A stretch of DNA of 61,700 nucleotides. It comes from a virus. Lineage: Duplodnaviria > Caudoviricetes. The stretch is from positions 1-61,700 of IMG/VR virus record IMGVR_UViG_3300044681_000784; one strand, 5' to 3'. The translations under genes were made by a program, and so were the position numbers. The notes beneath the pieces were generated by a model that searched no databases, was not told where the DNA came from, and worked only from the letters and a program-made list of their open reading frames with translations. How positions within the stretch are numbered: position 1 is the first letter of the stretch; every line of letters begins with the position of its first letter. Positions 1-61,700 of the stretch are shown in pieces.

Positions 1-3000
1 AACGCTTTGCCATAGCACCAACCATTCTATCCATAGCAATAGCACTCGCTAACGCTTTTATCTTGTTTTGGCCGAATAACTCCCTGTTTACTTTGTACAA
101 GTCACGAAGGTTCTTAGGACGTATTTGCGCTTTGGATGAAACCTCTTCTATCTTGGCTTCCATTTGAGCATCACTTGGCTCCTTGGCTTTAGTCTCCCCG
201 GCTTTCCGAGCTTGGGGGCCGGTCTTGGGAGCAGGCTTAACTCCGCTCTCTGTTTTTTCATCGAAGTCATATGATACAGAGAAGTCAGATAACTTGTCAC
301 CAATCTTAATAGTGCTGTAAAAATCATCTGCCGGAGCAAAAGTCTCTTCACCCTTCTTCCTTGGATTCATCTTGCCATCTTGATACACAAGGCCCTTATC
401 CGTAGCTACGCTCTCCTGAGAAAACTCCCGGGCAAACTCAACTGCATCCTCTGTGGTTAACCCATCAACAAAAAAGCTGTTCTCAGAGTTGCCATACTTC
501 CCAAAGATTCGCTGAGGATTATATCCCCGGCTACGCAACCACTCCTGAGCACGTTTATTTGCGGCTTCATTCTCCGCATCAGATACCTGTATTGCATCAG
601 GATTCTCCGCGGTAAGCATACCCCACTGACCATCACGAACAGTAGATTGAAAAGCCTCGTCACTCTCAAAGCTCGAAGCCGGAAGCTCTTCTTTTGTCTT
701 GGCATCCCAATTGGCATCCCTTGTGGTTGTAACGCCCTCTTTGGCCCGGAACTGAAACCCACCACTTTGACTCAGCATAGTTTCCAAGTCGCTGACCTCT
801 GAGCTCAAAGCCTCCTGCTCAGACTTCAACGAAACCAACTCGTCAACGCGAGCCTTGTTCGCAGAAACCAAAGCCTGCTGCTCAGGTGCCAACTCCTCGC
901 CCGAGATCACAGCGTCAGCAAGAGATGACAACACCCCATCCAACTGATCGGGAGCCAATGACTCACTCTGAACCTGCTGAATAATCTCAGGAGTGACAGC
1001 AACCGGGGCCGGGATGGATGACTTAAGCTCATCCAAACGGGACCGAGTCTCTGCTATTTTCCCTTTGGTTTCTTCGGTGCTGACTTCTTGACCTTCTCCG
1101 GCAACGACTTCTTCACCGGGTACTTGCTCTCCCACTCCTTCGCCAACTGTGGCTTCTGACTGTGTAGGAACCTGCGCTGTGCTTTGCTTTTGAATGGCAT
1201 CTTGCTTTAGCTTTAATATTAATTTTTCTGTTTCAGGATCGTTGTCAACGACAATGCGAGAACGGTTAAAACGGGAACCCCTCATGCTACTCACCGTACT
1301 CAAAAACTTTTCTTTGGTCATTGGAGTTCCATTGACCTTGTAAACCCCAACACCTTTAGGCGCAGTCGGAGCATTAATGCCCTGAAGATTCACCTGACTT
1401 TCTGCCGGGCGGAGTTTCTTGGTCTCGGCAATCTCCCTGATCTCCTCATTAACTGCGGCTATCTGATTGCGGTAAACCTCTCTTCTGTTTGTTGTGGCAG
1501 ACATCTCATCTCGAGCCTGCATCAACTCCATAATACGAGCCTGTAGCTTTGAGTCCTTGGCAGCAGTCTTACCATTCTCTCCAACAGAAAGAACGTCTCT
1601 CGCTTCTCTCCTAAGTCCAACATTCCGTTGGATTCTCTGCTCAACCTCAGCGTCAATCTGACCAAGCCTCCGCATATTGGAGGCCCAATTTGATATGCGC
1701 TCATCACTCGCTGACTCCTGAGCAACAGTGGAGACATTGGTTAACGAGTTCGCAAAATCAAGGTTGGTATTTCTCAATGCAGAAAACATGACGCCCATGC
1801 CGGCGTTCACACTGTTGTTTCCTATACCGCCCAACATCTCAGCTTCAATTTCTTTCTCGTCAATCTCTCCTGTTGACCATTTCTGAGCTACGAGCTCCCC
1901 AAAACCTTCCATGGCAGGATCGTATAGTCCACGTTCCGCAACTTGGGCCCCAAATTTCATTGGCTTACTCGCGAGTTTACTCACCTTAAAAACACCTCCT
2001 GTTAACATACTCGATAAAAGGTCTATACCGCCAATTGCAATTCCCCTTTTCACACCAATCTCGTTACCCTTTCTCCATACTTCAGGATCGTTCAATGCTT
2101 CAGCCATAGAGTTACCATCGGAGATATTATACCCCGACTCACGCGCAGCATCAAGAACAGATTGACTGTACTCTGCGGCAAAGTTTACTATTGCCATGCC
2201 GGTTTGATATCCATACTTCGCACCTGAAAGGCCTCCACCTAATGTTCCAAGACCTCCCGTTCCGGCTGCAGCAACACCTGCCCCCACAGCCGCCCCTGTA
2301 CCTATTGTTGTCGGCAAAACGCGCAAGCCAATTGGGAGCAACTGACTCATGCTCGTCGCAATCAAGGTTGAAGTAACCTCAAATGGATCAGACCAAAAAG
2401 CTCTCTGTGCCCTTTCATCACCTGAAAAAAGAGCTCCTGCTGACATAAAGGCTTGGAATGCCCGGCTCTTCGACGAAGACTCAGAGTTGCTGATGGCGTC
2501 TGAAATCATTTCAGAAGCTTCTTCAACAGTGCTCGCACCAAGCGCATACTTCATTAGTTCATACCCGGCCCTGCCGTTTTCATATGCAGAGTTTACCTCT
2601 CCCCAAAACCCGGCCATGTTCTCTTCAAACTCGTTTTGAATAGCCTTGTTTACCTTTGAGTCAAAGTAGGTCTGAGCTGAGTAGTACTTCTCCGCTGCAA
2701 TCTTATTTAGTTCGCCAAGCCCTGCAAGCCTACCCCTTATGTCATTTAAGGCAGCCACCTCTGCTTGGTTCTTTGGCTTGTATGAGTATAGATCTGCAAC
2801 CGGAACGCCAAAAGCCTCCATGGAAACTGCGTCAAGCTCTTGGTATTTAGTCTTAACTTGCTTCTTTAACTCGGTAGCCTCAGCAGAAACAACCTTGGCC
2901 CTGTTGTTAAGGTGCAAGTCAAAGTCTTCAAAAGCTGTTTGAACCTTGCCATCACTGAAAAAAGTTCTGTCTTCAACCTGAGCGAACAGCTCGTTCTTTT

Positions 3001-31840: not shown

Positions 31841-32190
31841 TACTTCTTTTTTTGACTTGGAGTTCTGTAGTCTACAAACCTTGTCGCTCCACTCTTAAGT
31901 TTAGATATAACACCGGGGACATCTTGTCTTTTTACCTTACTTACAATAGGTTTTGCACCGGCATAGGATTTTGTAAATGGGAACTCCTTCTTGCCTTTAC
32001 CAAAACCTGTTGTGTCAATAGACTCCATTGGAGAATACTTTCCATAAGTTCTCAACAACTTTCCGCTGTTGAATGCCATGTATGAACCACCCTTATTAAT
32101 TGGCTCAGGCTGCTTTCCTGCAGACTTAGGGCTACCTTTGCCGGGACCTTTACCCGGACCTTTGCTTGTTGACTTTCTCATAGATGCCAT
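31840..32190 (-). CDS. Basic protein with shared MAxMxKSxSKGPGKG leader (116 aa)
   Basis: ORF translationally coupled on both sides. Confidence 0.75.
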   Translation of the reverse strand: MASMRKSTSKGPGKGPGKGSPKSAGKQPEPINKGGSYMAFNSGKLLRTYGKYSPMESIDTTGFGKGKKEFPFTKSYAGAKPIVSKVKRQDVPGVISKLKSGATRFVDYRTPSQKKK

Positions 32191-32510
32191 TACTTATTTT
32201 TTTTCATGCGAGCCATGCGAGCTCTCATACCTTCTGACATTCCGGCCATCCGATTGTAGTCCGTACTAAGAACCTTGCTCTTGCCTGAAACAGCCTTTGG
32301 CTTCTCTCCCAACACACCCCGGGTGTACCCTTGGCGGTAGGCAACGCTATCCATGGCGGTAGGCGTAACCTTCTTTCCGCCCGGGCCCATTCCTCTTAAG
32401 CCTTCGTACTTAGGGCCTACGCTTGAGGTTGTTTTTTTCGCAGATGTTTTTGCCCCATCTCCGTTTCCTTTGCCGGAGCCTTTGCTCATTGACTTTTTCA
32501 TTGTTGCCAT
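32190..32510 (-). CDS. Basic protein with shared MATMKKSMSKG leader (106 aa)
   Basis: ORF in the tandem array. Confidence 0.75.
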   Translation of the reverse strand: MATMKKSMSKGSGKGNGDGAKTSAKKTTSSVGPKYEGLRGMGPGGKKVTPTAMDSVAYRQGYTRGVLGEKPKAVSGKSKVLSTDYNRMAGMSEGMRARMARMKKNK

Positions 32511-32512
32511 GG

Positions 32513-32827
32513 TTATTTCTTTTTAGGAGAAGGCGTGTTTGCCATGTCGTTTATGAACTTGTAGCCACGACTAACCAAAGACCGTTGCGGAGCAGTTTTC
32601 TTTTTGTAAGCCTCGCTGCGCGCATCGTAAGCTTTATTGAATCGAGACTCGGCTTGCTTTTTAGACATCATGCCTCCTACAGCTTTAGGACTGTATGTAT
32701 ATGTGGTGTCACTTCCACTGATGGTGCGAGTAACTCCGCCTGCTGTTTCTTTCATAGGCTTCATTCCGTTGCCTTTGCCGGGACCTTTGCCGGGACCTTT
32801 GCTCATTGACTTTTTCATTGTTGCCAT
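32513..32827 (-). CDS. Basic protein with shared MATMKKSMSKGPGKG leader (104 aa)
   Basis: ORF in the tandem array. Confidence 0.75.
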   Translation of the reverse strand: MATMKKSMSKGPGKGPGKGNGMKPMKETAGGVTRTISGSDTTYTYSPKAVGGMMSKKQAESRFNKAYDARSEAYKKKTAPQRSLVSRGYKFINDMANTPSPKKK

Positions 32828-32839
32828 GGTTGTTTGTGT

Positions 32840-33091
32840 TTAAGAGGTTCTCTTTGATCTGCTACCAATAAACCCCTGAAGCCCTGCAAGGCCGTAAGAT
32901 CCGCCTTCCCCCTGCTTCCGGTTTTTACTTGTGGTAGATATAGCTTTTGTTTTCTTCTGCAGAACAGCAAGCCTATCCTGAGAAGCCTTAGTCCTACGAT
33001 CAGAATAAGCCTTGTTTATTTCGCGGATAGAGTCACCAAGAGTCTTCTTTGACTCCTTCTTTTCGGCAACCTTTGTTTTCTTTTCAGCCAT
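32840..33091 (-). CDS. Small basic protein (83 aa)
   Basis: Start placed at MAEKK, downstream of the minus-strand TATCTTTG at 33113-33120. Confidence 0.65.
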   Translation of the reverse strand: MAEKKTKVAEKKESKKTLGDSIREINKAYSDRRTKASQDRLAVLQKKTKAISTTSKNRKQGEGGSYGLAGLQGFIGSRSKRTS

Positions 33092-35189: not shown

Positions 35190-36815
35190 TTAACTTTGGG
35201 TTTCATATGAACGGGCCATCGTTACAATGGCGTTAGTACTCAAAATCGTAGTGGCAACACTAACCGCATTCTCCAACGCACTCCGGGTTACCTTCATCGG
35301 ATCAACAACACCAAGCTTGAACAAGTTCCCAATGGCACCCGTCTTCAAACAAATCCCCTCGTTGTACGTCAAAGCATTGTCACTATAAACCCCAAGGTCA
35401 CAGTACCCGGAGTTCAAAAGGATCTGACGCAACGGAGCACCAATAGCACTCGAGATGATCTCCCTCGCAGCCATGTGCTCTGCACCATCACGAACCCTCA
35501 CAGCATCGTTAAAGTTCTCAGAGATGTGGTGCAACGCCCTACCTGCCCCGGGAAGAATACCCTCCTCTAAAGCACTGCGAACAGCACACACCGCATCGTC
35601 CACCCGGTCAAACAACTCCTTCTGCTCAATGTCTGTGTTTCCACCAACAAAGATCACACCTACTCCACCGGATAACGAGGCAATCCTGCTCAAGATAAAC
35701 TCCCGGTCCTCCTTCCTACTCGACTCCTCATACGCATCGCGAAGCTGAGCAACCCTGCGATCAACCTCCTCGCCATCGGTCCGGTAGTCCGAGTTCACAA
35801 TAACCGTACTGTCACGACTAACCACAACCTTGGCAGCGTGGCCCAAGTCCGCGTAGGTCATCAACGACAAGTCATCACCTGTCTTCTCAGAGAAGTATGT
35901 AGCACCAACACTAACGGCAATGTCACTCATCAACTCGTGCTGCTTGTACCCAAACTGAGGTGGCTGTATCGCAACAACCTTCAAGTTGTTCTTAATCTTG
36001 TTCGCAGCCAACGTGTTCACAACATTTGTACTGCAAGGAGCAATGATCAACAACCTCTTGTTTTCAGAAATCACCGGCTTCAACACCTGCTCAATCTGCA
36101 AAATATTACTGATCTCAGCGTCCGACACCAAGATCATCACGTCCTCATAAACAACCTCGTCCCTCTTCTGATCGTTTACGAAAAGATTACTCAAGTATCC
36201 CCTCTCAACCCTAAACCCATGAGAAATCTCAGAGTAAGTCTCCGAGTTCTGAGAACGCTCAACGGTAACAATACCGTCCCGACCAACCTCGTTGTACACG
36301 TCCGCAATAATACGGCCAATCTCCTTGTCATTGTTCGCGGATATAGTAGCGACGTCTAACAGCATCTTCTTACTAACTTGTTTCTTTCGAGTCTTTAGGA
36401 CGTCGACTACCGTATCCACCAATCTTGTCATCTCCCTCAAAACCTCCGTCCTGTTCAACGAAGTGTTACTCCCCAAAACCCTCATCCCATTCTCAACCAT
36501 GGCCTCCGTCAAAACAATAGCCGTAGTGGTGCCATCACCGGCAACCGTAGCGGTACGATCCGCCGCTTGCTTCATCATACGAACAGCTAAGTTCTCAACC
36601 GGATCCAACAAGTCAACAGACTTCGCAACAGTAACACCATCCTTGGTCACCGTCATGCCACCAAGATGATTGCTCGACTCAATCAGCACAGTGTTGCCAC
36701 TCGGACCTAACGTGCTCTTCACAGCACCGGCCATCTTCTTTACACCACTTAACAGCTTTCTCCGGCCATCTTCGCCGAACACCAAGTCCTTTGGTGAGTA
36801 TCCAATTTCATTCAT
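35190..36815 (-). CDS. groEL: Chaperonin GroEL (541 aa)
   Basis: TLGP.G, TKDGVTVAK, AGDGTTTA, SAN.D, DRVDDA..A...A.EEGI..G.G and DP.KV.R.AL.NA.S.A motifs; no GGM tail; promoter at 36834-36841. Confidence 0.95.
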   Translation of the reverse strand: MNEIGYSPKDLVFGEDGRRKLLSGVKKMAGAVKSTLGPSGNTVLIESSNHLGGMTVTKDGVTVAKSVDLLDPVENLAVRMMKQAADRTATVAGDGTTTAIVLTEAMVENGMRVLGSNTSLNRTEVLREMTRLVDTVVDVLKTRKKQVSKKMLLDVATISANNDKEIGRIIADVYNEVGRDGIVTVERSQNSETYSEISHGFRVERGYLSNLFVNDQKRDEVVYEDVMILVSDAEISNILQIEQVLKPVISENKRLLIIAPCSTNVVNTLAANKIKNNLKVVAIQPPQFGYKQHELMSDIAVSVGATYFSEKTGDDLSLMTYADLGHAAKVVVSRDSTVIVNSDYRTDGEEVDRRVAQLRDAYEESSRKEDREFILSRIASLSGGVGVIFVGGNTDIEQKELFDRVDDAVCAVRSALEEGILPGAGRALHHISENFNDAVRVRDGAEHMAAREIISSAIGAPLRQILLNSGYCDLGVYSDNALTYNEGICLKTGAIGNLFKLGVVDPMKVTRSALENAVSVATTILSTNAIVTMARSYETQS

Positions 36816-37940: not shown

Positions 37941-38140
37941 TGACTAAACTCACAAAAAAAATTGCGCTCTACAGCCCTTTGATAGCAAGGGATTCAGAAT
38001 TTTAACATTTTTTTTTGCTTCCCACATTTGGTAGTTTAAAAACTTCTAACGTACTTTGTCATGTTGCTAGTCAAAACATGAACAAAAACTTGTATATATA
38101 TAACCACACGCACGATAATAACCACACACACGATATCACT

Positions 38141-38175
38141 AATCACTAATCACTAATCACTAATCACTAATCACT
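38141..38175 (+). repeat. (AATCACT)5 tandem repeat in the leader of the first early gene
   Basis: Five perfect copies; the same heptamer recurs before several early start codons. Confidence 0.9.
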
Positions 38176-38183
38176 TATCAATC

Positions 38184-38681
38184 ATGAAAATCGCAAGAAG
38201 AATGTATCTAAACATCGGGAAAGCTAACAATCCCTTTGGACAATTTACGGATGAACAATTTGCAGACCTTCTATATAGTCTGCCCGACATTCACAGCAAA
38301 CCACACGTCGAAACCCATGTTGGAGAATGGGAAGGTCAGCGCGAAGAGACCTTTGTGGTAGACCTTATACACTATGATGATGACGCATCATCAAGAACAG
38401 AATCATATTACAAGTTTATCAGCACATTGCTATCCTTCACTACTCAGGATGCCATTGGAGTAATTTCCTTTGATGGCAGAGTAGATGAATCTGCAGGATA
38501 TGTAGAACGCGTTTGGCTGAATGGAGCGGAATTGAGGGAGTATTACTTCAGCAGTCCTCGTCTATTTTGGCATTACGGAGTAGAGCAGAAATATGAATTT
38601 AACAATGAATTCTTCATCATGCCATCTACCATAACTGATGTAGAGCGCGAAGCACATCAAAGAACGCTAAACTTGAAATAA
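38184..38681 (+). CDS. Putative SAM lyase (T3 SAMase-like) anti-restriction protein
   Basis: G-E-W-E-G-Q-R-E-E-T and Q-D-A-I motifs align by eye with the T3 SAMase G.Y...EE.T...QDCV motifs; first rightward gene. Confidence 0.5.
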   Translation: MKIARRMYLNIGKANNPFGQFTDEQFADLLYSLPDIHSKPHVETHVGEWEGQREETFVVDLIHYDDDASSRTESYYKFISTLLSFTTQDAIGVISFDGRVDESAGYVERVWLNGAELREYYFSSPRLFWHYGVEQKYEFNNEFFIMPSTITDVEREAHQRTLNLK

Positions 38682-38716: not shown

Positions 38717-38920
38717 ATGATTAAAACTAAAAAAATATCATCAGGTCATTACCAAGGTACATACAAGAGCATTGGCTTCAAGGTCATCAAATCTATTCTG
38801 CCAAGCAATGAAGTAGTATGGTATTACCAAATCGGGAATGAGAAGGTGCATGATTTCCATGGGAGCAAATTTGAAGCAATTCAGTCTTTGATATCTTGGA
38901 TAGACGAGACAAAATCTTAA
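38717..38920 (+). CDS. Hypothetical early protein (67 aa)
   Basis: ORF bounded by the palindrome and heptamer repeats. Confidence 0.7.
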   Translation: MIKTKKISSGHYQGTYKSIGFKVIKSILPSNEVVWYYQIGNEKVHDFHGSKFEAIQSLISWIDETKS

Positions 38921-38961
38921 TCACTAATCATTAATCACTAATCACTTAAATCTTATCAATC

Positions 38962-39822
38962 ATGACAAACAAACTTCAAGCAAAATTGGGAATTAACAAG
39001 GTGAATTCTCTAAAAAGCAAAATCGATGCGAGCAATGAGAAATTGGCTCAAAACTACATTGCCATTGGCAAAATCATCGCAGAAGGCTCACTATGGGCAG
39101 ACAGCAAGGAAGGGAAGGAATTGCTGAGAGCGGAAGGTTTAACCAAAGCCGATGTGCTTACTGCCTATGGATACAGCCGTTCTTGGGCATACAAGCTAAT
39201 TGCTGTGTCTAATGTTGATGACGAGACATTGGCTGCGTACCTTGGCCAAGGCAATGTGGAATTCAATGTTGCTGACCTACTGAATTTCATTAACGCTACA
39301 GCGGAAGGTGAAGGTGAAGGTGAAGGTGAAGGTGAAGGTGAAGGTGAAGGTGAAGGTGAAAGCCAATCTAAGCCATCTACCTTGGCGAATTTAACCTTCC
39401 ATTTTGCTGCTGAATCGGTAAAGGTTAGGGTTACTGATGATGGCAAAGTTCACACCAAGAGTGACCTTGATAGCATCCGATTGGCATTGGCAGAACTTAC
39501 GCGAATTGTCGCGGAAGCAGATGCTCAGGCTCAGGCAGATGCCAAGGCTAAGGCTAAGGCAGATGCTCAGGCTCAGGCCAAGGCTCAGGCCAAGCCTACT
39601 CCAATCAAAGATTTCTCCAATGCCCTTGCATATGTTGGTGTAGATGCGCTGAAGGGAAAGGGAGGAATCCTGAATGTGGATAGCTTGCAGTATGTGGAAT
39701 TCGGGAATGAGACGTTCTTCAATGAATCGGGAGAATTGGGCAATGCCGCATCCGAATTCGTAGCGTCTCATGGATGGTCTTATCAGGTCGAAGAACCCTC
39801 TCACTTCTATGTAGCAAAGTAA
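38962..39822 (+). CDS. Early protein with possible DUF3102-like HTH, (EG)9 linker and Ala/Lys/Gln linker
   Basis: IAIGKII...YGYSRSWAYKLI pattern; (GAAGGT)9 at 39304-39357. Confidence 0.7.
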   Translation: MTNKLQAKLGINKVNSLKSKIDASNEKLAQNYIAIGKIIAEGSLWADSKEGKELLRAEGLTKADVLTAYGYSRSWAYKLIAVSNVDDETLAAYLGQGNVEFNVADLLNFINATAEGEGEGEGEGEGEGEGEGESQSKPSTLANLTFHFAAESVKVRVTDDGKVHTKSDLDSIRLALAELTRIVAEADAQAQADAKAKAKADAQAQAKAQAKPTPIKDFSNALAYVGVDALKGKGGILNVDSLQYVEFGNETFFNESGELGNAASEFVASHGWSYQVEEPSHFYVAK

Positions 39823-40163: not shown

Positions 40164-40215
40164 AAAATGTCTCTTCGAAGAGACAAAATCGCTAATCACT
40201 AATCAATTATCAGCA

Positions 40216-40647
40216 ATGCAAACAATCGCACAGCAGCTAAACGTAACTGAATTTCCTTTCGAAATCCATGATGCTAATGGAAATCTAATATACTATGAAG
40301 AGTCAAGTTCATATTGGTGGAAGCGTGAATACGATTCTAATGGCAATCTAATCTACCATGAAGAGTCAAGTTCATATTGGTGGAAGCGTGAATACGATTC
40401 TAATGGCAATCTAATCTACCATGAAAATTCCGAAGGCTTTTGGCGGAAATATGAATATGATGCTAATGGTAATCAAATCTACTTTAAAGATTCCGATGGC
40501 TATTGGAGCAAATGTGAATACGATTCCGATGGCAATCGAATCTACTTTGAAGATTCCTGTGGATATTGGAGTAAACGTGAATGCGATTCCGATGGAAGTC
40601 TAATCTACTATGAAGATTCCGATGGACTAATCATCGACAATCACTAA
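40216..40647 (+). CDS. 21-aa tandem repeat (YD-like) protein, paralog A
   Basis: 5.5 repeats of YDSNGNLIYxExSxxYWxKxE; true start MQTIAQ. Confidence 0.8.
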   Translation: MQTIAQQLNVTEFPFEIHDANGNLIYYEESSSYWWKREYDSNGNLIYHEESSSYWWKREYDSNGNLIYHENSEGFWRKYEYDANGNQIYFKDSDGYWSKCEYDSDGNRIYFEDSCGYWSKRECDSDGSLIYYEDSDGLIIDNH

Positions 40648-40654
40648 TCAAACC

Positions 40655-41876: not shown

Positions 41877-41951
41877 CCATTTAATCACCACAAAAATGTC
41901 TCTTCGAAGAGACAAAATCACTAATCATTAACCATTTAATCTTTATCACTT

Positions 41952-42338
41952 ATGTTGGTAGCAATCAATTTAGACATTGACCTTGAGTCAATATTCGTAA
42001 CGGCCTTAGAAGGCGGAAGTAACTATTGGATTGACTTCAGCTCATCCACATTCAAACATCTCAAGGATAAGTATTCGCAGATGTCATTCTCCGAGCGAGT
42101 TTACAATGAATTCATCAGCGGAGGAGCCATTGATGTCTTGGATGTTGAAGGTGATGAATCGGATGTCATCGGCCAAATATCCTTGGCCACTGCACCTTCG
42201 AGACTCGCCAAGATGTTTGAAGATGGCTTCATTTGGAGTCATGCAGACATTTCAGAGTTATTGGATGGAACTGCTGATGCCATTGCGTCAGACATTGTAC
42301 TTCAGTACCTTGCGTTAGGCGAAATAGTTTACGGATAA
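41952..42338 (+). CDS. Conserved phage hypothetical protein (128 aa)
   Basis: TALEGGSNYW...DA...D..LQ...LGEIVYG pattern. Confidence 0.7.
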   Translation: MLVAINLDIDLESIFVTALEGGSNYWIDFSSSTFKHLKDKYSQMSFSERVYNEFISGGAIDVLDVEGDESDVIGQISLATAPSRLAKMFEDGFIWSHADISELLDGTADAIASDIVLQYLALGEIVYG

Positions 42339-42638: not shown

Positions 42639-42896
42639 ATGATACATAACGAGCATTTCGATAAGGCCGACAGAACCTACGAGGTTTGGCACGACAACAA
42701 TGGCAATGCCATTCACATCTTAATCAAGGATGGGGAGGCCATCATCTACCCTACAATCTATGACCTATTTCAGCATTTCCTATGCGGAATGGATGTTGAG
42801 AGAATGTACGTTGATGATGATGTGCTGAACTCAATCTGTGAATTAAACATCTACAATTACTACGAAATCAAAAACAAAATCAATTATCAATCATGA
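42639..42896 (+). CDS. Hypothetical early protein (85 aa)
   Basis: ORF with ATGA coupling to the next gene. Confidence 0.7.
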   Translation: MIHNEHFDKADRTYEVWHDNNGNAIHILIKDGEAIIYPTIYDLFQHFLCGMDVERMYVDDDVLNSICELNIYNYYEIKNKINYQS

Positions 42897-43633
42897 AAAC
42901 AATCGCGCAGAATTTAAACATCAAGGACTTTCCCTTTGAGATTAAGGATGCTAATGGCAATCTAATCTACCATGAAGATTCCACTGCCTTTTGGTGCAAA
43001 TGTGAATGCGATTCTAATGGCAATCTAATCTACTATGAAGATTCCGATGGCTTTTGGCGGAAACATGAATACGATTCTAATGGAAATCAAATCTACCATG
43101 AAAATTCCGGTGACTATTGGAACAAATGTGAATACGATTCCAATGGTAATCAAATCTACTTTGAAAATTCCTATGGCTATTGGAACAAACGTGAGTACGA
43201 TTCCAATGGCAATGAAACCTACTTTGAAGATTCCGGTGACTATTGGAACAAATGTGAATACGATTCCAATGGCAATCGAATCTACTTTGAAGATTCCTGT
43301 GGATATTGGAACAAACGTGAGTACGATTCCAATGGCAATGAAACCTACTTTGAAGATTCCGATGGTGAAATCATCGACAATCGGATTAATGAAGATGTCA
43401 AATTGGTAAATGAAGATGAGAGCGCGAGACAAGTCCTTGAGGGCATGGGGTACTATGTCCGGAATCTATGGTCAGTAAGTGACGTGAACGGATTCAATGG
43501 CAAGGTTTCAAAAGAGGAGGCTCTTAAGATTTTGGCTTCAGCACTAACCCATCCGTACACCATGGAAGTAGTCTTTGGTTTGATTAAAGATGGAGTCAGG
43601 GATTTTGGATATAAAATCGAAGACGAGTCTTAA
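42893..43633 (+). CDS. 21-aa tandem repeat (YD-like) protein, paralog B, with extra C-terminal domain
   Basis: 6.5 repeats plus an ~80-aa C-terminal domain (GYYVRNLWSVSDV). Confidence 0.8.
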   Translation: MKTIAQNLNIKDFPFEIKDANGNLIYHEDSTAFWCKCECDSNGNLIYYEDSDGFWRKHEYDSNGNQIYHENSGDYWNKCEYDSNGNQIYFENSYGYWNKREYDSNGNETYFEDSGDYWNKCEYDSNGNRIYFEDSCGYWNKREYDSNGNETYFEDSDGEIIDNRINEDVKLVNEDESARQVLEGMGYYVRNLWSVSDVNGFNGKVSKEEALKILASALTHPYTMEVVFGLIKDGVRDFGYKIEDES

Positions 43634-46547: not shown

Positions 46548-47177
46548 ATGGCAAATCCAAAGTCGGTCTTCGAGACCTTAAACAGCGTTCCTTTCAGGGA
46601 CAAAATCGAGAACAAAGGTGGCTTAGACTACCTCTCATGGGCATGGGCATGGTCTATGCTAAAGGCAAACTACCCGAATGCCAATCGTATTGTGTACGAA
46701 GATCCGGCCACAGGCTTGAACTTCTTCACAGATGGCAAGACAGCCTACGTCAAGGTTGGTATTTCAATCGATGGCCTTGAGCATATCGACTACCTACCAA
46801 TCATGGACTTCCGCAACAACCCCATCCTAATTGACAAGCTAACAGCGACAGACGTGAACAAAACAATTCAGCGTTCTACAGCCAAGGCAATTGCCATGCA
46901 TGGATTGGGCATCCAACTATGGAGTGGCGAGGACATCCCCGGCGAAGCACCGGCTACATCTCCGGCCATGGGCACACCGAAGCAGTCTGCATCGGTTCAG
47001 CCAACACCACAAACTCAACAAGCTGAGTCGCTAAAGACCGGCACAGAGAATTGGGACAGAGTTGTAGCTTACGTTACTGCGAACAAAGAGATTGGCTTTG
47101 ACAAAATCATTGCCCAACTTAAGCGCAAGTACACCATCGCTCCATCGGTTGCCAACAAAATCAAGGAGTTGCTATGA
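46548..47177 (+). CDS. Single-strand annealing protein (Sak3/DUF1071, Rad52-like)
   Basis: YLSWAWAW, LPIMD.RN and NK..QR...KAIA.HGLG..L..GED.P motifs. Confidence 0.85.
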   Translation: MANPKSVFETLNSVPFRDKIENKGGLDYLSWAWAWSMLKANYPNANRIVYEDPATGLNFFTDGKTAYVKVGISIDGLEHIDYLPIMDFRNNPILIDKLTATDVNKTIQRSTAKAIAMHGLGIQLWSGEDIPGEAPATSPAMGTPKQSASVQPTPQTQQAESLKTGTENWDRVVAYVTANKEIGFDKIIAQLKRKYTIAPSVANKIKELL

Positions 47178-47920
47178 AGAACAAAAGTCAGATAGTCGAA
47201 AGGCTGAGAGATGACTCAGATTACTATGGGGAGTTTGGCAGGAAATTCCTGTCGAACTCCGACATAGGAGTCCTACTCTCAAACCCGAAGGACTTCCGTA
47301 ATGGGACTCGGCCCGACTCAAAGGCTCTGTTAGAAGGTAGGTACTTCCATCAGCTATTGCTTGAGCCTGAGAAGGCTTTTGATGTCATGGTGGTTGACGC
47401 ATCGTCAAGGAACACCAACATCTACAAGGAGTACATCGCATCAACAGGGTTAGACATAGTACTTCTTCAGAAGGAGAAGGAGCACATCGAGAGGCTCGTC
47501 TCAGTAATGAAGTCGAACATCTACTACTACGATGAGATCTACAAGCCATCGAACAAGTACGAAGTTCCACAGGTCAAGGAGATCATGGGAGTTCTTTGGA
47601 AGGGGAAGGCGGACATAGAGTCAGACAGCATACTTATTGATGCCAAGACCACGTCCGACATCCACAAGTTCAAGTACTCTGCGAAAGCCTACAACTATGA
47701 CTCTCAGGCTTGGCTTTACGAACAGCTATTCGGGAAGCCATTGGTGTTCTTTGTCATCGACAAGGAGACCGAACAGCTTGGAGTCTTCCGGCCTACGGAT
47801 GAGTTCCTTGAGTCAGGCAAAGACAAGGTCAGAAGAGCCGTTGAAGTTTACAACAGGTACTTCGGCCCGACAGCCTACGATAGTGTTGAAAACCACTACA
47901 TCGACTTAGAGTTAAATTAA
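47174..47920 (+). CDS. PD-(D/E)XK exonuclease (RecE/DUF3799-like)
   Basis: LS.S.I, G..FH..LLEP, KGKAD, ID.KTT and Y..QA..Y motifs; coupled to the SSAP gene. Confidence 0.8.
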   Translation: MKNKSQIVERLRDDSDYYGEFGRKFLSNSDIGVLLSNPKDFRNGTRPDSKALLEGRYFHQLLLEPEKAFDVMVVDASSRNTNIYKEYIASTGLDIVLLQKEKEHIERLVSVMKSNIYYYDEIYKPSNKYEVPQVKEIMGVLWKGKADIESDSILIDAKTTSDIHKFKYSAKAYNYDSQAWLYEQLFGKPLVFFVIDKETEQLGVFRPTDEFLESGKDKVRRAVEVYNRYFGPTAYDSVENHYIDLELN

Positions 47921-57600: not shown

Positions 57601-60600
57601 TGAGCAGCAAGAAGCTGTTTTCTTCCTGTTCTCATGTCTCTTATCTCTTTACGCTGAGCTTTCAGAGTAGCTTCAATCTCCTTCTTTGCCATCAACTCCT
57701 TCTGCTTCTCAATCAAATTGAGAACGCGCTCGGCCTGAGCGTTGAAGTTATTGACATCTGTACTGCCAACCAACCTTACAAGACGCTCTATTCGGGCCGG
57801 GCTGAAGCCACTTGTTTGTGGCAACACATCGGAGATGAAGTCTATGAGCTTCTTCTGAGCAGCAGCAAGTTCTTTGATGCCCATCTTCTTGGCCGCCAAT
57901 CCCTTTTTAATCTGAGAAATCTGAGCGTCCACAGACCTGTTGGCCCGGGTAGATAGAGATTGGTCAAAGCCAATCAACAACTCGTCCTGCACAATCTTTG
58001 CTTGGGCCTTGAATATCGGATGATCCTTTAATAGTTCGATGGCCTTTTGCCGGACCTCAGACATGGTCCTTGTCCTTTCCTTGCCATCCGCTTCCTTCAC
58101 CTTCTTGCGAGCGTACTTGCTCAACTGCTGACGAACATCAGCGTACATCTTCATCCCTTCTTTTACCCCACCCTGTACGTTTGTAAATGACTGAGGTAGG
58201 TTGGTCATAAGGTCCACCTTTACCTCCAAGGCAGTGTTTATATCACCGGCCTTAAACCCACGACGCAAAAGTATTTCCTTGATGGACTGATCGGAGAAAC
58301 CATTTGCCCGGCCAAGGTCTATGATGCTCTGCATGGAGTCTTCGGCCCGGGCCATGGCGGTAAGGCTTCTCATTGACTCAAGCTGCTTGTCAGAGATCTT
58401 CATGTCCTCACCTTGAATCATGTCGGCAATAGCGGTTTCGATAAACTTATCCAAAGACAGATCCTGAATTTCTTCAATGCTCAGGTCTTTTGACATTTTA
58501 AATTTGTTACGGACATACTCCCACATGGCAAACAAGAACTCCTGAAACTTAGACTTGGTTGCCGCATCAGAAATTTGCTGTCCTTTATTACCTATGAGTA
58601 TTGCCAACATCTCGTTCAATGCTGCCGCTTCATTGCCATCGAACTCTTCCATCTGTCTTTCGAACATGGCCTTCAACTTGGGATCGGTCTTGATTCCCTC
58701 CTTTAAAACGGATATACCACGCTCAAGTAATTGCCGGCCCTTGCTGCCGGGCTCAGAGGTTGCCAACATATTAAGCCAAACGTGACCGAACTCATGTATG
58801 ACAGTATTGAACATATCAGATTCTGAGTTGTGCACGTCGGGGTTTATGTAGATGTCTCCATTGGCAGTAACACCATAGAGGATCGCATCCCCTTTCATCT
58901 GAAGCCTTGTCCCTGATTCTGCTATAATATTATTGAAAGCTTCGGCTGTTGTATAAACCGAAACATTTGGGAATGTTCTGTTGATAAGAGAAATCAACTG
59001 CATTGCTTTTGTTCTGCTGTTGCCTACAAACCTTCCCATAAACTCAGGTAACCCCATACCTACCCCAAGAGCACTTGATGGTGGTAGGGGTTTTTTCTTT
59101 GCAGACAAAGCCTCTATGTTTTTTCCAATTATAGCACCGTAGGCTGAAGGCATTACACTTTGCACAGGCAAAGGTTTACTTAAAACACCAAAAGACATTC
59201 CTTCGGCACCATATTCATAGTTTGGATGATCAACATTGATCACACCACCTGCTTCTTTGTACGATCCGTCAGGCTGTTTTTCTGCCACCTTAACTCCTAC
59301 TATTGATGTGACCGATCCGATTGGGACATTAGCTACGGATGGATCAGCTATCACATCGATTATAGACTGTATGTGCAGAAGAGCGTTATTCTTTGTCTTA
59401 CCGATGATAGCTTTTATAAATTTATTTGTAGGAGGATTAAAAGTTTTTGTTTTAGTCGATGCGCTTCCCGAGGTAATCATTTTGATTAAAGCTGCACGAG
59501 GTCCCAAAGGCATATCAAAAATAGCACTTAAAACGTCTTCAAGACTTGAAGCATCTTTTAGTATATCAGCAGCAGAATTTGAATCCTTTTCAGATTTTGA
59601 TATTGTCTTTTTCTTTTCTCCTCTTTTTTCTCTTAGCTTATTCTCCTTTTCCTGTACCGCATATTTTTCTTTTGCGTTTATTAGGATTCTTTTCAACTCT
59701 TTAAAAGCGGCTTTCTTTTTAGTTTCAGAAAGGTTCATAGAGTTAATCCTATCAACAACAACCCTTGACAAAGCCTCGTTTGAAAGGATAGAATCTTCCC
59801 CCATTTTTACAACAAGCATTGGCACCATACCGTCGTACTTCGGATTGTCTGCCCAAAACTTTTCAATTACTTCTTTGTTGTTGTTGTATATTTCACGAGC
59901 CTTTCTTACCTGTTCATTTGCTTTTGGACGCGATACATTCGCCCAAGCCGCTTTTGCAAACCGTTTAATGCCATTGAAACCTAACCCACCAAAGAGTTTC
60001 AATATCTTGTTCCCTGTCACCGGATCTGTAACTCCTTCGTTTGACGCTACGAGATAGTCGGATATGGTTGTGAGTACAGGGACACCATTTAAAATCTCTA
60101 TGCTCACCGTCTCAAGGGGTGTATCAAGCTTTGAGTTAAGCTCATCTACATCTGTTTCCACGTCAGTATCTACCTCTGTTCCTGCTGAGAACTCAACGAG
60201 TGGGCTTTCGAGATTGTTCATCTCGTCAAGTATGGCCTCAAACTCTGCGTCTTCAGTCACTCCTGAATCTTCCCCGGCTTTCCGAGCTTGGGGGGTTTCC
60301 TTGGTTTGCCCCAACAACTCCTCTACCGCTTTAACCAACTCGGGATTGCTTCCGTCTTCCTTTGCCTTGTGGTAGGCTTCGGAGATTTCTTTATTTAACT
60401 CTTTGTCCCTGTAGATATTATTTAAACCTGTGTATGTGTTTATGTTTTTAGACAAACTATACATTCTTGGCTTTTCTCCCCACCCTTCAACTTCATACAC
60501 AGAATCATCTCCTAAATAAACTGCGTAGTGCCTTGCATCATTCTTATCTCCAAATGCTATAATGTCACCAACCTTTAATATTTTTTGCAATTCGGATACA

Positions 60601-61700
60601 ACTTTTTCATTTTTTCCTCCAAATTTAATTTTAAAGTTTACCTTATCAAAAACATCTTTAAATAATCTGTTGTTTACAAGTCTATGACAGAATGCATCAC
60701 AGTTTAAGTATTCTATTTTTTTTGAAATCTCTTCAGCTTTTCTTATAATAAAATTACTTTTTATTTTATCTAAGCCATCCCCATCAATCCCCTCCAACGC
60801 CTTAGCCGTACTCTCTACATCTTGCAATGGATCCTCCCCGGCTTTCCGAGCTTGGGGGCCTTCCGCAAAAATGCTGTCGTAAATCTTACGCATCTCAGGG
60901 TTCAACTCAATGTCAATGTCACTACCAACAATACCATTGTATATCTCTGTCAACCACTCCTTAAACTTGGCAAACACCTTGTTTAACTCCGCAATAGGAG
61001 AACTACCCTCAGCTAAATAACGCTCAAAACCACGAGCAAAATACTCACTCGTTTCAGTAGTCCAACCATTCGTTCCCGCATTCCTTATCACCGCATTACG
61101 CTCAGAAGGTGTTAAATAATGCTCGAAAATATGAGCCATCTCGTGCAAAGGCGTAGATACATTCGGATCGGTTAAGGCGTAAACTACCGCCTGACCATCA
61201 AGGGAAACCATTACCGCACCACGAGCTTGACTATCTGCCTTTTGGAACAAAACAATCTGCTCATCCCTCGCCACATCTTCCGTTTCAGACAACAAAGTTC
61301 CTCTCCTTTGTTCGGGTGTCATGCCCATACGAGTTTGTACGTTTCGGGCTTCTACCTCGCCGGCAAGTTTTCTATATTTAACGTAGGCTTTAAAGTCAAA
61401 TGTTTGCCCGAAAAATGACTTTTTACTACCAACATCTCTATAGCTGCCGCCACGAGCAAACCCTTCGTGAATCTGAACTATATGAGTTAATTCATGCTCA
61501 AGTATAGAATGTATTTTTCTTTTATTCCCACCCTCTACTTCTACTTTAAATAAATACCCATCTTTTGATGGCGTTGCAATTGTAGTTCCTTCGCCAAAAA
61601 AGAAAAAGTTTCTTCCTCTTTCTAAATCAATCCTTACCGGCACTTCTTTTAAAAACGGATATACTTCTAATAACTCTCCTTTATATATTTCCCCTAATTT
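54621..61700 (-). CDS. Giant polyvalent protein, C-terminal part (>2350 aa; frame open to the right edge)
   Basis: Frame continues KLGEIYKGELLEVYPFLKEVP to 61700. LPD23-like HELTH...EGFARGG...AGEVEARNVQ, zincin HEMAH and HEFGH, an NlpC/P60-like insert and a long helical C-terminus. Confidence 0.85.
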   Translation of the reverse strand, partial: KLGEIYKGELLEVYPFLKEVPVRIDLERGRNFFFFGEGTTIATPSKDGYLFKVEVEGGNKRKIHSILEHELTHIVQIHEGFARGGSYRDVGSKKSFFGQTFDFKAYVKYRKLAGEVEARNVQTRMGMTPEQRRGTLLSETEDVARDEQIVLFQKADSQARGAVMVSLDGQAVVYALTDPNVSTPLHEMAHIFEHYLTPSERNAVIRNAGTNGWTTETSEYFARGFERYLAEGSSPIAELNKVFAKFKEWLTEIYNGIVGSDIDIELNPEMRKIYDSIFAEGPQARKAGEDPLQDVESTAKALEGIDGDGLDKIKSNFIIRKAEEISKKIEYLNCDAFCHRLVNNRLFKDVFDKVNFKIKFGGKNEKVVSELQKILKVGDIIAFGDKNDARHYAVYLGDDSVYEVEGWGEKPRMYSLSKNINTYTGLNNIYRDKELNKEISEAYHKAKEDGSNPELVKAVEELLGQTKETPQARKAGEDSGVTEDAEFEAILDEMNNLESPLVEFSAGTEVDTDVETDVDELNSKLDTPLETVSIEILNGVPVLTTISDYLVASNEGVTDPVTGNKILKLFGGLGFNGIKRFAKAAWANVSRPKANEQVRKAREIYNNNKEVIEKFWADNPKYDGMVPMLVVKMGEDSILSNEALSRVVVDRINSMNLSETKKKAAFKELKRILINAKEKYAVQEKENKLREKRGEKKKTISKSEKDSNSAADILKDASSLEDVLSAIFDMPLGPRAALIKMITSGSASTKTKTFNPPTNKFIKAIIGKTKNNALLHIQSIIDVIADPSVANVPIGSVTSIVGVKVAEKQPDGSYKEAGGVINVDHPNYEYGAEGMSFGVLSKPLPVQSVMPSAYGAIIGKNIEALSAKKKPLPPSSALGVGMGLPEFMGRFVGNSRTKAMQLISLINRTFPNVSVYTTAEAFNNIIAESGTRLQMKGDAILYGVTANGDIYINPDVHNSESDMFNTVIHEFGHVWLNMLATSEPGSKGRQLLERGISVLKEGIKTDPKLKAMFERQMEEFDGNEAAALNEMLAILIGNKGQQISDAATKSKFQEFLFAMWEYVRNKFKMSKDLSIEEIQDLSLDKFIETAIADMIQGEDMKISDKQLESMRSLTAMARAEDSMQSIIDLGRANGFSDQSIKEILLRRGFKAGDINTALEVKVDLMTNLPQSFTNVQGGVKEGMKMYADVRQQLSKYARKKVKEADGKERTRTMSEVRQKAIELLKDHPIFKAQAKIVQDELLIGFDQSLSTRANRSVDAQISQIKKGLAAKKMGIKELAAAQKKLIDFISDVLPQTSGFSPARIERLVRLVGSTDVNNFNAQAERVLNLIEKQKELMAKKEIEATLKAQRKEIRDMRTGRKQLLAAQIQLKNYIRTTLPKSSAFTQAQINRLISAITNTTLDNFSEQAQKVLDVVTRQLTKMSKAKVKEISAIINKAAKISSTQSGKRRAGRVDADTQSLFATMKSVFRAITMEARDGDSSAIDRIMDSVDPAVLALKGIDLDVVQQKLDNGEELTSQERAAFNTTVALQELEVVRDFLTGFTSTGVSPSPWQHMEALNMLAQRLKEIASEGIVRLKADKLVLSSEISSLNQQAKDQIQADFGILYNEDGTLKGKNQLAAERRMIWENFRSLKIWEGIKGWVKTIDFQTVTGFHDFMRKKIYHLGTLLNVLDKGGDFFKKNVYDALNRMDEATKRGYFNQILMLDGLARANGFKNYKDFTRSLSGPPVFLQVGTYKSPLNLDQILRLYALSKNDVQRKKLIEMGIDINEIEAALTDKQKAVADGVVDYLSNSYFDSVNNVYSYVNNVNLGYVSNYFPTKTIQTRIDGKVLESGDFGSTFNAETAPALKERTDTKGEIDIDGADFTSVLDAHFRSMEKYKAMAVGVRKIAQIFKLQDVVTLLEQTGTKPMIMRALNFAINPESMTREPSTFVGKIASKFTGFALAFKAIQIVKQGISFVQAFEDYTVRKGKPTPVLDHIMFMVDMAYIIATLPIQIKKAYNMSANVKDRLDQGLEGDVYGLESGTGLFRPISKSSSAWAKARRAFKTSGGSFTVLGDITGVLGYMAVYNRMIKQGFTQAEALEAFNNYNATQQSRRATEKSPIQMSNNEFQRLFTMFGSTVFLMMNKTAQTSTNIMRSISKGKIPKAKDVRGLMLNVAITNALFVGGANLAKFIKGDEEDKEEALKAMRNAMLGLNLIYSIPLIGSAVETMVSYAEGDFRKADDTVNPFMSLFRKYQKSKQYLSEGEIWGATQPIIEIIIGAQLDPFIGIYNYFFGASDQKEEDAATYDMLGITESYRPDTEEKQQGGMNKGDMKRYFPDLYDDVYGPNSPGYDVREEIKEMDREIDKEMQAIKDEAYGK
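60271..60860 (-). repeat. Direct repeats TCCCCGGCTTTCCGAGCTTGGGGG flanking an in-frame 564-nt cassette
   Basis: Copies at 60271-60294 and 60835-60858; third copy at 195-218. Confidence 0.9.

Follow-up and report, generated by a model that had tools for sequence, protein, structure and literature searches.

The complete 61.7-kb IMG/VR virus record IMGVR_UViG_3300044681_000784 (hereafter the window, meaning the whole stretch of DNA analysed; classed as linear, with a CheckV completeness of 100%) encodes on its minus strand a giant, putatively polyvalent protein, within which lies a domain cassette that appears to move horizontally, and in frame, between phages. The cassette comprises a small helical holder, here called the socket, whose two conserved halves bracket an AT-rich NlpC/P60-like domain, the cargo. 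The exact direct repeats of 24 nucleotides (nt) that accompany it we read as young footprints of recombination in the linkers, not as conserved sites. Taken as a whole, this reading has in our judgment a little better than an even chance of being correct.

The giant open reading frame (ORF) is cut in two by the contig ends. P0002 (2..4603) holds its N-terminal 1534 codons and runs off the contig start, and P0001 (54621..61700) holds its C-terminal 2359 codons and is open at the contig end. Along the protein the order of elements is a DUF3293-like domain, repeat copy A, a zincin-like module, repeat copy B, DVESTAKAL, a 139-amino-acid (aa) AT-rich core, SEAYHKAKEDGSNPELVKAVEELLG, repeat copy C, and the remainder. 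In the 564-nt unit between copies C and B, the NlpC/P60-like domain (60378..60794; P0001 aa 303-441) stands between DVESTAKAL (socket helix 1, 60795..60821) and SEAYHKAK-DGSNPELVKAVEELLG (socket helices 2 and 3, ISEAYHKAKEDGSNPELVKAVEELLG, 60309..60386), all on the minus strand. An earlier note on this DNA, made from the sequence alone, had described DVESTAKALE and ISEAYHKAKEDGSNPELVKAVEELLG between the two right-hand repeats and supposed that these helical peptides form a constant socket around variable cargo. The peptides are present as described, and comparison with other phages upholds the supposition.

An initial cassette scan returned one close relative (L004) and four distant phages with the C-terminal peptide only and different inserts, and alignment of that peptide extended the set to 61 viral loci. 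The DVESTAKAL-like N-terminal half lies upstream in 54 of these, 43 recognised by regular expression (regex) and 11 more by hidden Markov model (E<0.002). The same two peptides thus bracket unrelated inserts in many phages, and in L070 a different cargo occupies the same socket within the same backbone. The stretch between the two socket peptides measures 15-328 aa, and only 23-45 aa in eight of the regex loci; cargoes of 50 aa or more number 36 (the window and 35 loci) and fall into 23 blastp clusters. An ART-PolyVal domain scores above the Pfam cut-off inside the socket of L036, and few other inserts have a Pfam name. Some phages also carry two or more sockets in tandem (L039 at ~3090-3130, L041, L048, L061 and L030), with a second DVESTAKAL-like helix straight after the first cassette. 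Bacterial genomes gave only 10 socket loci, all in metagenome-assembled genomes with mixed taxonomic labels, from which no host was drawn.

Codon variation places the conservation of the socket at the level of the protein. Among 40 distinct DNA sequences of the C-terminal half, residues invariant across the set show no variation at codon positions 1 and 2 and 0.6-1.9 bits at position 3; conservation therefore acts on the protein. AlphaFold2 models the 72-aa minimal cassette of L069 as three helices (predicted local distance difference test score, pLDDT, 77.6; predicted template-modelling score, pTM, 0.62) and the window cassette as one confident body (pLDDT 89.9, pTM 0.82) with confidently modelled flank helices at residues 15-23, 155-169 and 173-187. 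Searches for relatives of this fold returned no Pfam family for the L069 socket, no PHROGs or NCBIfam family for three minimal cassettes, a best E of 3.1 by Foldseek against the PDB, and a best Z of 4.8 by VIA-align wide, a value under the level meaningful for helical models. A match in the ESM Atlas to aminotransferase fragments (best score 0.87, 103 shared features) was taken as chance. A literature search with the motif strings AYHKAK, SNPELV and DVESTAKAL found only an unrelated zoology paper. A socket with variable cargo thus appears to be undescribed so far, as judged from literature searches and from Pfam, PHROGs and NCBIfam.

Comparison with L004 indicates that the cassette moved recently. 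Over a block of 533 nt covering socket and cargo (60310..60842), identity to L004 reaches 94.9%: 28 nt and 11 aa differ, synonymous divergence (dS) is 0.19 and nonsynonymous divergence (dN) 0.026. In contrast, the backbone is only ~69% identical (68.8-70.7%), with a saturated proportion of synonymous differences (pS) of 0.69-0.74 and a dN of 0.25-0.26. This disparity, dS 0.19 against saturation, therefore points to recent horizontal exchange of the cassette. The shared block begins inside copy B, in its final 8 nt (GCCGGGGA, with the alignment matching for one base more), and the native left end of the cassette therefore already encodes AGE. On the other side it ends at the LLG of the socket, 15 nt before copy C, and not at the right-hand repeat. 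L070 complements this picture: its upstream domain is 92% identical in protein to that of the window, the two cassettes are alike in socket DNA only (52 nt at 90% and 75 nt at 77%), and its cargo is a different, larger one with weak ART-like matches. Counting the window, L004, P0004, P0005 and L070, five layouts occur between the same upstream and downstream backbone. A search of Joint Genome Institute (JGI) metagenome contigs with the downstream backbone found the L004 contig again and no further close relative.

The composition of the cargo sets it apart from its surroundings and gives it a foreign look, and the earlier claim of a core far richer in AT than the gene body is borne out. GC content is 0.21 at 60625-60774 and 0.27 at 60550-60699, compared with 0.51-0.52 at the repeats and 0.47-0.50 near 57850; GC content at third codon positions (GC3) is 0.20-0.30 in the core against 0.40-0.57 around it. 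The same holds in other phages. Cargo GC lies under that of its own backbone in 34 of 35 loci, and GC3 averages 0.20 in cargo, 0.30 in backbone and 0.35 in socket (39 of the 43 regex socket loci, L009-L069). Across the 43 regex loci the cargo is nearly always richer in AT than its own backbone, third codon positions included, irrespective of backbone GC. This fits the entry of cargo from a common AT-rich pool into resident sockets, selection being another possible cause.

So sharp a break in GC within a metagenomic contig could also arise if an AT-rich block had been joined to the contig through short repeats during assembly. We give this explanation almost no credence. The independent contigs L004, P0004 and P0005 hold the same cassette in the same gene, the frame is open throughout, and among assembled contigs from public sequencing runs an 8288-nt contig of run X1, which may itself come from the source sample, is identical to the window over 59300-61005.

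The cargo is predicted to be a cysteine peptidase of the NlpC/P60 kind. Nearly all of the 35 PDB matches listed by Foldseek for the window cassette model are of NlpC/P60 type (best E 3e-4; the exception is MagC, 7bk8), with target-normalised TM scores of ~0.5-0.6 for single-domain targets; they include the baseplate lysins of diffocin (8v3w_H) and phage phi812 (9eug_A) as well as MepS/Spr (2k1g). In 28 aligned members of the cargo family, conservation reaches 90% or more for the Asn-Cys pair (C334, codon 60699-60701, minus strand) and for a Glu (E403), and the His (H391, codon 60528-60530, minus strand) is invariant; near-invariant elements are Asn-Cys, Gly-Asp, a Tyr after the invariant His, the Glu and Trp-Gly. 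Pfam scores fall short of their cut-offs, at 17.2 bits for NLPC_P60 (PF00877; cut-off 23) and 18.6 for LRAT (24.3). The predicted fold and the family alignment together agree with the papain-like signature that the earlier note had recognised, and the domain would probably act as a peptidoglycan endopeptidase that aids entry. Among 1.84 billion proteins, the core family has 46 representatives at E<0.001, many in giant proteins with other linkers and some stand-alone. In several other giant proteins (P0006-P0008, P0011, P0013 and P0014), the NlpC/P60-like domain stands between other recurring linkers (...NPDIRF..GG... and ...PSIRKQK...), which hints at further linker 'dialects' in polyvalent proteins.

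We now turn to the repeats. The 24-mer TCCCCGGCTTTCCGAGCTTGGGGG occurs exactly three times on the plus strand, at 195, 60271 and 60835, and was never matched in 100 dinucleotide shuffles, even with up to 3 mismatches allowed. Copies A and B are identical over 27 nt (194-220 and 60834-60860), copies C and B match at 89% over 37 nt (60264-60300 and 60828-60864), and copies C and B are spaced by 564 nt, or 188 codons. In the minus-strand frame of the giant ORF all three encode PQARKAGE (P0002 aa 1463-1470; P0001 aa 282-289 and 470-477). Copy A (195..218) lies between the DUF3293-like domain and the HExxH-bearing, zincin-like module, copy B (60835..60858) between that module and the cassette, and copy C (60271..60294) at the start of the conserved downstream backbone. 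The three exact copies, the 27-bp match, the shared peptide and the spacing had all been noted earlier, and they stand. A further claim, that a shorter core CGAGCTTG at 61222 marks another junction, does not: this 8-mer is one of 3 matches outside the three repeats, where 1.46 are expected.

Copy C is positionally homologous to PQTRIDTK of the relatives, and is therefore probably the original copy, the native junction of the downstream backbone. The diverged linkers of the relatives read TQARKTG-TQFRAGE at the left side and KAG-PQTRIDTK at the right. The 24-mer has no match in other viral contigs or in JGI metagenome contigs, in searches that may omit the records closest to the window, and a search of 8 loci with a degenerate PQARKAGE pattern gave no match beyond those of the window itself. 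Exact direct repeats flank the cassette in other lineages as well, and their spacing always preserves the frame: L035 has 28 nt at a spacing of 504, L047, L049 and L051 have 24 nt at a spacing of 780, and L012 and L016 have 13-15 nt. These repeats are unrelated in sequence to the 24-mer of the window, and EKPTTQPD and DKGDVEVK are among the peptides encoded. By comparison, 300 mismatched control pairs gave mostly repeats of 6-12 nt, and the 8 pairs with at least 14 nt are probably pairs of near-identical loci. About 36 of 43 cassettes have no flanking repeat above this control level, and the distance from repeat to socket varies, being ~0-4 codons on the left and ~5-10 on the right.

Three or more unrelated lineages have in-frame direct repeats of similar length and differing sequence around a cassette that moves independently of its backbone, which might be taken to mean that the cassette is a non-autonomous mobile element, inserted by a dedicated enzyme with long (24-28 nt) target-site duplications. 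We regard this as quite unlikely. Of the features of transposable elements, flanking direct repeats are indeed present (24 nt long in both the window and L047, 28 nt in L035). Conserved DNA termini and a transposase or recombinase are absent: socket codons differ freely at their third positions, and the whole cassette forms a single in-frame ORF with no recombinase in it. The variable distance between repeat and socket and the large majority of cassettes lacking such repeats speak against it as well, as does the fact that the repeat of the window also flanks the unrelated zincin-like module.

The assembled contigs of public runs X1, X3, X4 and X6, from which rare variants are dropped in assembly, show how related genomes differ at this locus. 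In X1/X3 and X4/X6 contigs, which represent other phages of these samples, the socket halves are at least 90% identical to those of the window, with 508 or 439 other letters replacing the 400-406 letters skipped between them. In X4 the edge of copy C is where a backbone unitig (depth 244) breaks off, and a 590-nt unitig (depth 54) spans exactly 60271-60860; in X6 the homology of a 97.6%-identical backbone ends at 60294 and the contig continues for 72 nt; and in X1 and X3 the more abundant type keeps the zincin-like module up to 60861 and then enters another linker. Near-identical backbones thus lose homology at the outer edges of the repeats, 60294 and 60861, a result predicted alike by repeats that are footprints and by repeats that are handles.

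The handles proposal, developed from the earlier note, holds that the 24-mers are maintained DNA sites where the phage's Sak-like protein and its exonuclease insert, delete or exchange entire domains without loss of frame, as programmed diversification. It draws on the three exact copies at three successive domain junctions, on the presence of both enzymes in the genome, on the loss of homology between the 97%-identical X4/X6 backbones at the repeat edge together with the X4 unitig that runs from repeat to repeat, and on the comparable repeats of 24-28 nt in L035 and L047; such lengths are close to the minimum for efficient homologous recombination. Against it, the 24-mer has no counterpart in other viral contigs or in JGI metagenome contigs, the nearest relatives carry diverged versions, and in other phages the duplication alone, not its sequence, is conserved. 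Copy C played no part in the exchange with L004, no excision junction appears in the assembled contigs, and the three copies score no better than shuffled sequence when folded as DNA (z -0.39, +0.42 and -0.23), giving no sign of an unusual hairpin. We therefore consider maintained handles improbable, if worth keeping in view. The proposal is not supported in its stated form, in that the repeat is absent elsewhere and diverged in relatives; the breakpoints at repeat edges and the 13-28-nt repeats of other lineages favour some role for such duplications in recombination, and repeats that are still intact may go on mediating the gain and loss of modules.

The identity of the repeats might also follow from selection on the peptide they encode. 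PQARKAGE occurs in the inter-domain linkers that flank an HExxH module to either side, autoproteolytic release of domains has been proposed for polyvalent proteins (PMC5512222), and the peptide could serve as a cleavage site for the adjacent metallopeptidase or for a prohead protease, the identity of the DNA being a by-product. Selection on a peptide leaves identity at every synonymous site unexplained, PQARKAGE is missing in the relatives, and flanking repeats elsewhere encode unrelated peptides (EKPTTQPD and DKGDVEVK); as an account of the repeats, this one has little probability. Cleavage at these linkers is compatible with a mobile cassette and young linker footprints, without replacing them.

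For the mobile socket-cargo cassette, the route of recombination and the function of the socket are what we infer. The region would encode a hypervariable array of modules within a giant polyvalent protein, whose gene closes the virion structural operon. The 564-nt unit would join a single copy of the linker to a domain cassette that is self-contained, in frame and able to move horizontally. The socket is envisaged as a three-helix domain, with DVESTAKAL as helix 1 and SEAYHKAK-DGSNP-ELVKAVEELL as helices 2 and 3, in which the loop between helices 1 and 2 would tolerate insertion and here accommodates the putative cysteine peptidase. Between co-occurring phages socket coding DNA is 77-90% identical over 40-75 nt, homology that could suffice for double crossovers exchanging the cargo. 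Modules would be stacked or lost through unequal or microhomology-mediated recombination in the linkers, with duplication of a linker stretch as the result. The AGE at the native left end of the cassette would offer microhomology with the end of the repeat, and an unequal crossover there would stack the module and double the linker. The three PQARKAGE 24-mers would accordingly be young duplications of the native junction, copy C, made as the cassette and the zincin-like module were stacked, and while intact they could mediate the precise in-frame loss or exchange of either module. A bolder extension, to which we assign a low probability, makes the socket a dedicated plug-in adaptor, a small folded domain evolved to take up any effector domain in its loop. 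It combines conserved socket DNA and 24-28-nt linker duplications, produced by a specific route of insertion, into a domain-level 'integron', through which unrelated aquatic phages would continuously trade internal effector domains of injected proteins.

Several observations count against this account. The giant gene is broken by the contig ends (1 and 61700), and simple circularisation produces a 1-nt frame offset; probably the contig lacks a few bases, or its ends do not meet at the real junction. The placement of copy A in the same protein as copies B and C is accordingly drawn from relatives, in which both halves form one protein (P0003, at least 3672 aa and open-ended; P0004, 3811 aa). 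When gp60 of phage F116 was tried as a bridge over the contig junction, the C-terminal part of the window protein aligned with it at 39% identity, and the tail of P0002 did not align. The contigs of the four public runs, subject to the loss of rare variants, contain no joint that skips the 564 nt and no deletion or swap junction within a genome type. Identical synonymous codons between sockets are in excess, at 0.53 against 0.41 expected, in 614 of 741 pairs that are not independent, which leaves room for constraint on the socket at the DNA level. The predicted contact between helix 1 and helices 2 and 3 is drawn from the confidence scores of the models, and no sequence or structural relative in Pfam, PHROGs, NCBIfam, the PDB or the Atlas hints at a function for the socket. 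Finally, the identity of three copies at consecutive junctions could stem from gene conversion or from selection.

The genomic setting agrees with a virion protein. The giant ORF ends a minus-strand structural operon (4642-25396 for the terminase, at 23147-25396, the portal, at 20712-23150, and several virion structural proteins), and its product would be a polyvalent protein packaged in the virion and injected. In its 1534 + 2359 aa it combines DUF3293 (42 bits against a Pfam cut-off of 25), three HExxH motifs and the NlpC/P60-like domain. The C-terminal part of the zincin-like module (60861..61700, minus strand; its N-terminal 64 codons lie at 2-193) bears two of these motifs, HELTH and HEMAH, and the module is missing in L004, L070, P0004 and P0005. 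The earlier note had placed an LPD23 module next to a zincin, an identification we could not confirm: no Pfam family at E<=0.01 gives the neighbouring module that name, and the zincin-like module, like the extra modules of L004 and L070, yields only sub-threshold Pfam matches. The two recombination enzymes credited earlier to this phage, a Sak-like single-stranded-DNA-annealing protein (46548-47177, plus strand) and an exonuclease (47174-47920, plus strand), are encoded as claimed, and the pair could take part in domain exchange. Promoter-like TAnnTTTG motifs (repeat family D14), which we take to match the Bacteroidota promoter consensus, suggest a Bacteroidota host.

Elsewhere in the window, a GroEL-like chaperonin is encoded at 35190-36815 (PHROG E 6e-136), and two arrays of 63-nt (21-codon) tandem repeats (40201-40650 and 42815-43380; families D1 and D2) lie in two plus-strand genes ~2.5 kb apart. 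Runs of the heptamer TAATCAC (38119-38204, 38904-38982, 40172-40222 and 41915-41965) stand directly upstream of plus-strand ORF starts; together with the palindrome TGTCTCTTCGAAGAGACA (38686, 40119, 40168, 41897 and 43721), they are likely regulatory and terminator elements of an early gene block. A ~63-nt segment occurring three times at ~320-nt spacing in 32134-32846 (family D5) suggests three small paralogous minus-strand genes.

Domain shuffling in phage polyvalent proteins is already known, and how exchange occurs in frame is not. The present finding provides a concrete unit that can be searched for, a conserved holder of three helices with a loop open to insertion, and direct evidence that holder and cargo pass between phages with synonymously saturated backbones. 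It thus seems that phages exchange enzyme modules without disturbing the reading frame. Since the majority of the cargoes recovered lack a Pfam family, the holder offers a handle for cataloguing unknown phage effector domains. It is equally a natural insertion-tolerant scaffold, a candidate for protein engineering, and a tractable system for measuring phage recombination at very short homologies.

The closest known systems are the polyvalent proteins themselves. Like the protein of the window, those described by Iyer et al. (2017; PMC5512222) are giant, multidomain, strongly mosaic and encoded among virion genes, and they unite disparate enzymatic domains, HExxH peptidase-like modules recurring here and ART-PolyVal in the cassettes of relatives. 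Their signature Pfam domains (MPTase, ART-PolyVal and the LPDs) do not exceed the cut-off in the window protein, whereas ART-PolyVal does so in the socket of L036. In its passages bearing on recombination no conserved two-sided holder around variable domains is described, the words 'NlpC', 'linker' and 'shuffling' are absent from its main text, and Pfam, the home of the LPD families, has no match to the socket.

Polymorphic toxins such as CdiA, Rhs and MafB, which carry a conserved peptide motif at the border of a variable toxin tip, are a further parallel, along with the MuF-fused phage toxins. The socket resembles them in placing a short conserved peptide at a hypervariable border, where the coding DNA can serve as homology for exchange. 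In contrast to a toxin tip, the variable domain is internal here (P0001 aa 303-441 of 2359) and is bracketed by the two halves of what would be a small folded domain, no immunity gene follows the cargo, and the genome holds no orphan cassettes, the C-half motif being single in the whole window. With cell-wall endopeptidases of the NlpC/P60 kind (MepS/Spr 2k1g, diffocin 8v3w_H and phi812 9eug_A), the cargo shares its predicted fold and the order Cys...His...Glu, and it differs from them in being nested within another domain of a giant protein and in its Pfam score below the cut-off. Lambdoid phages exchange modules at short conserved boundary sequences, and the cassette is likewise joined at short shared sequences between functional modules; unlike lambdoid mosaics, its joints lie inside a single reading frame, and the units exchanged are protein domains rather than genes.

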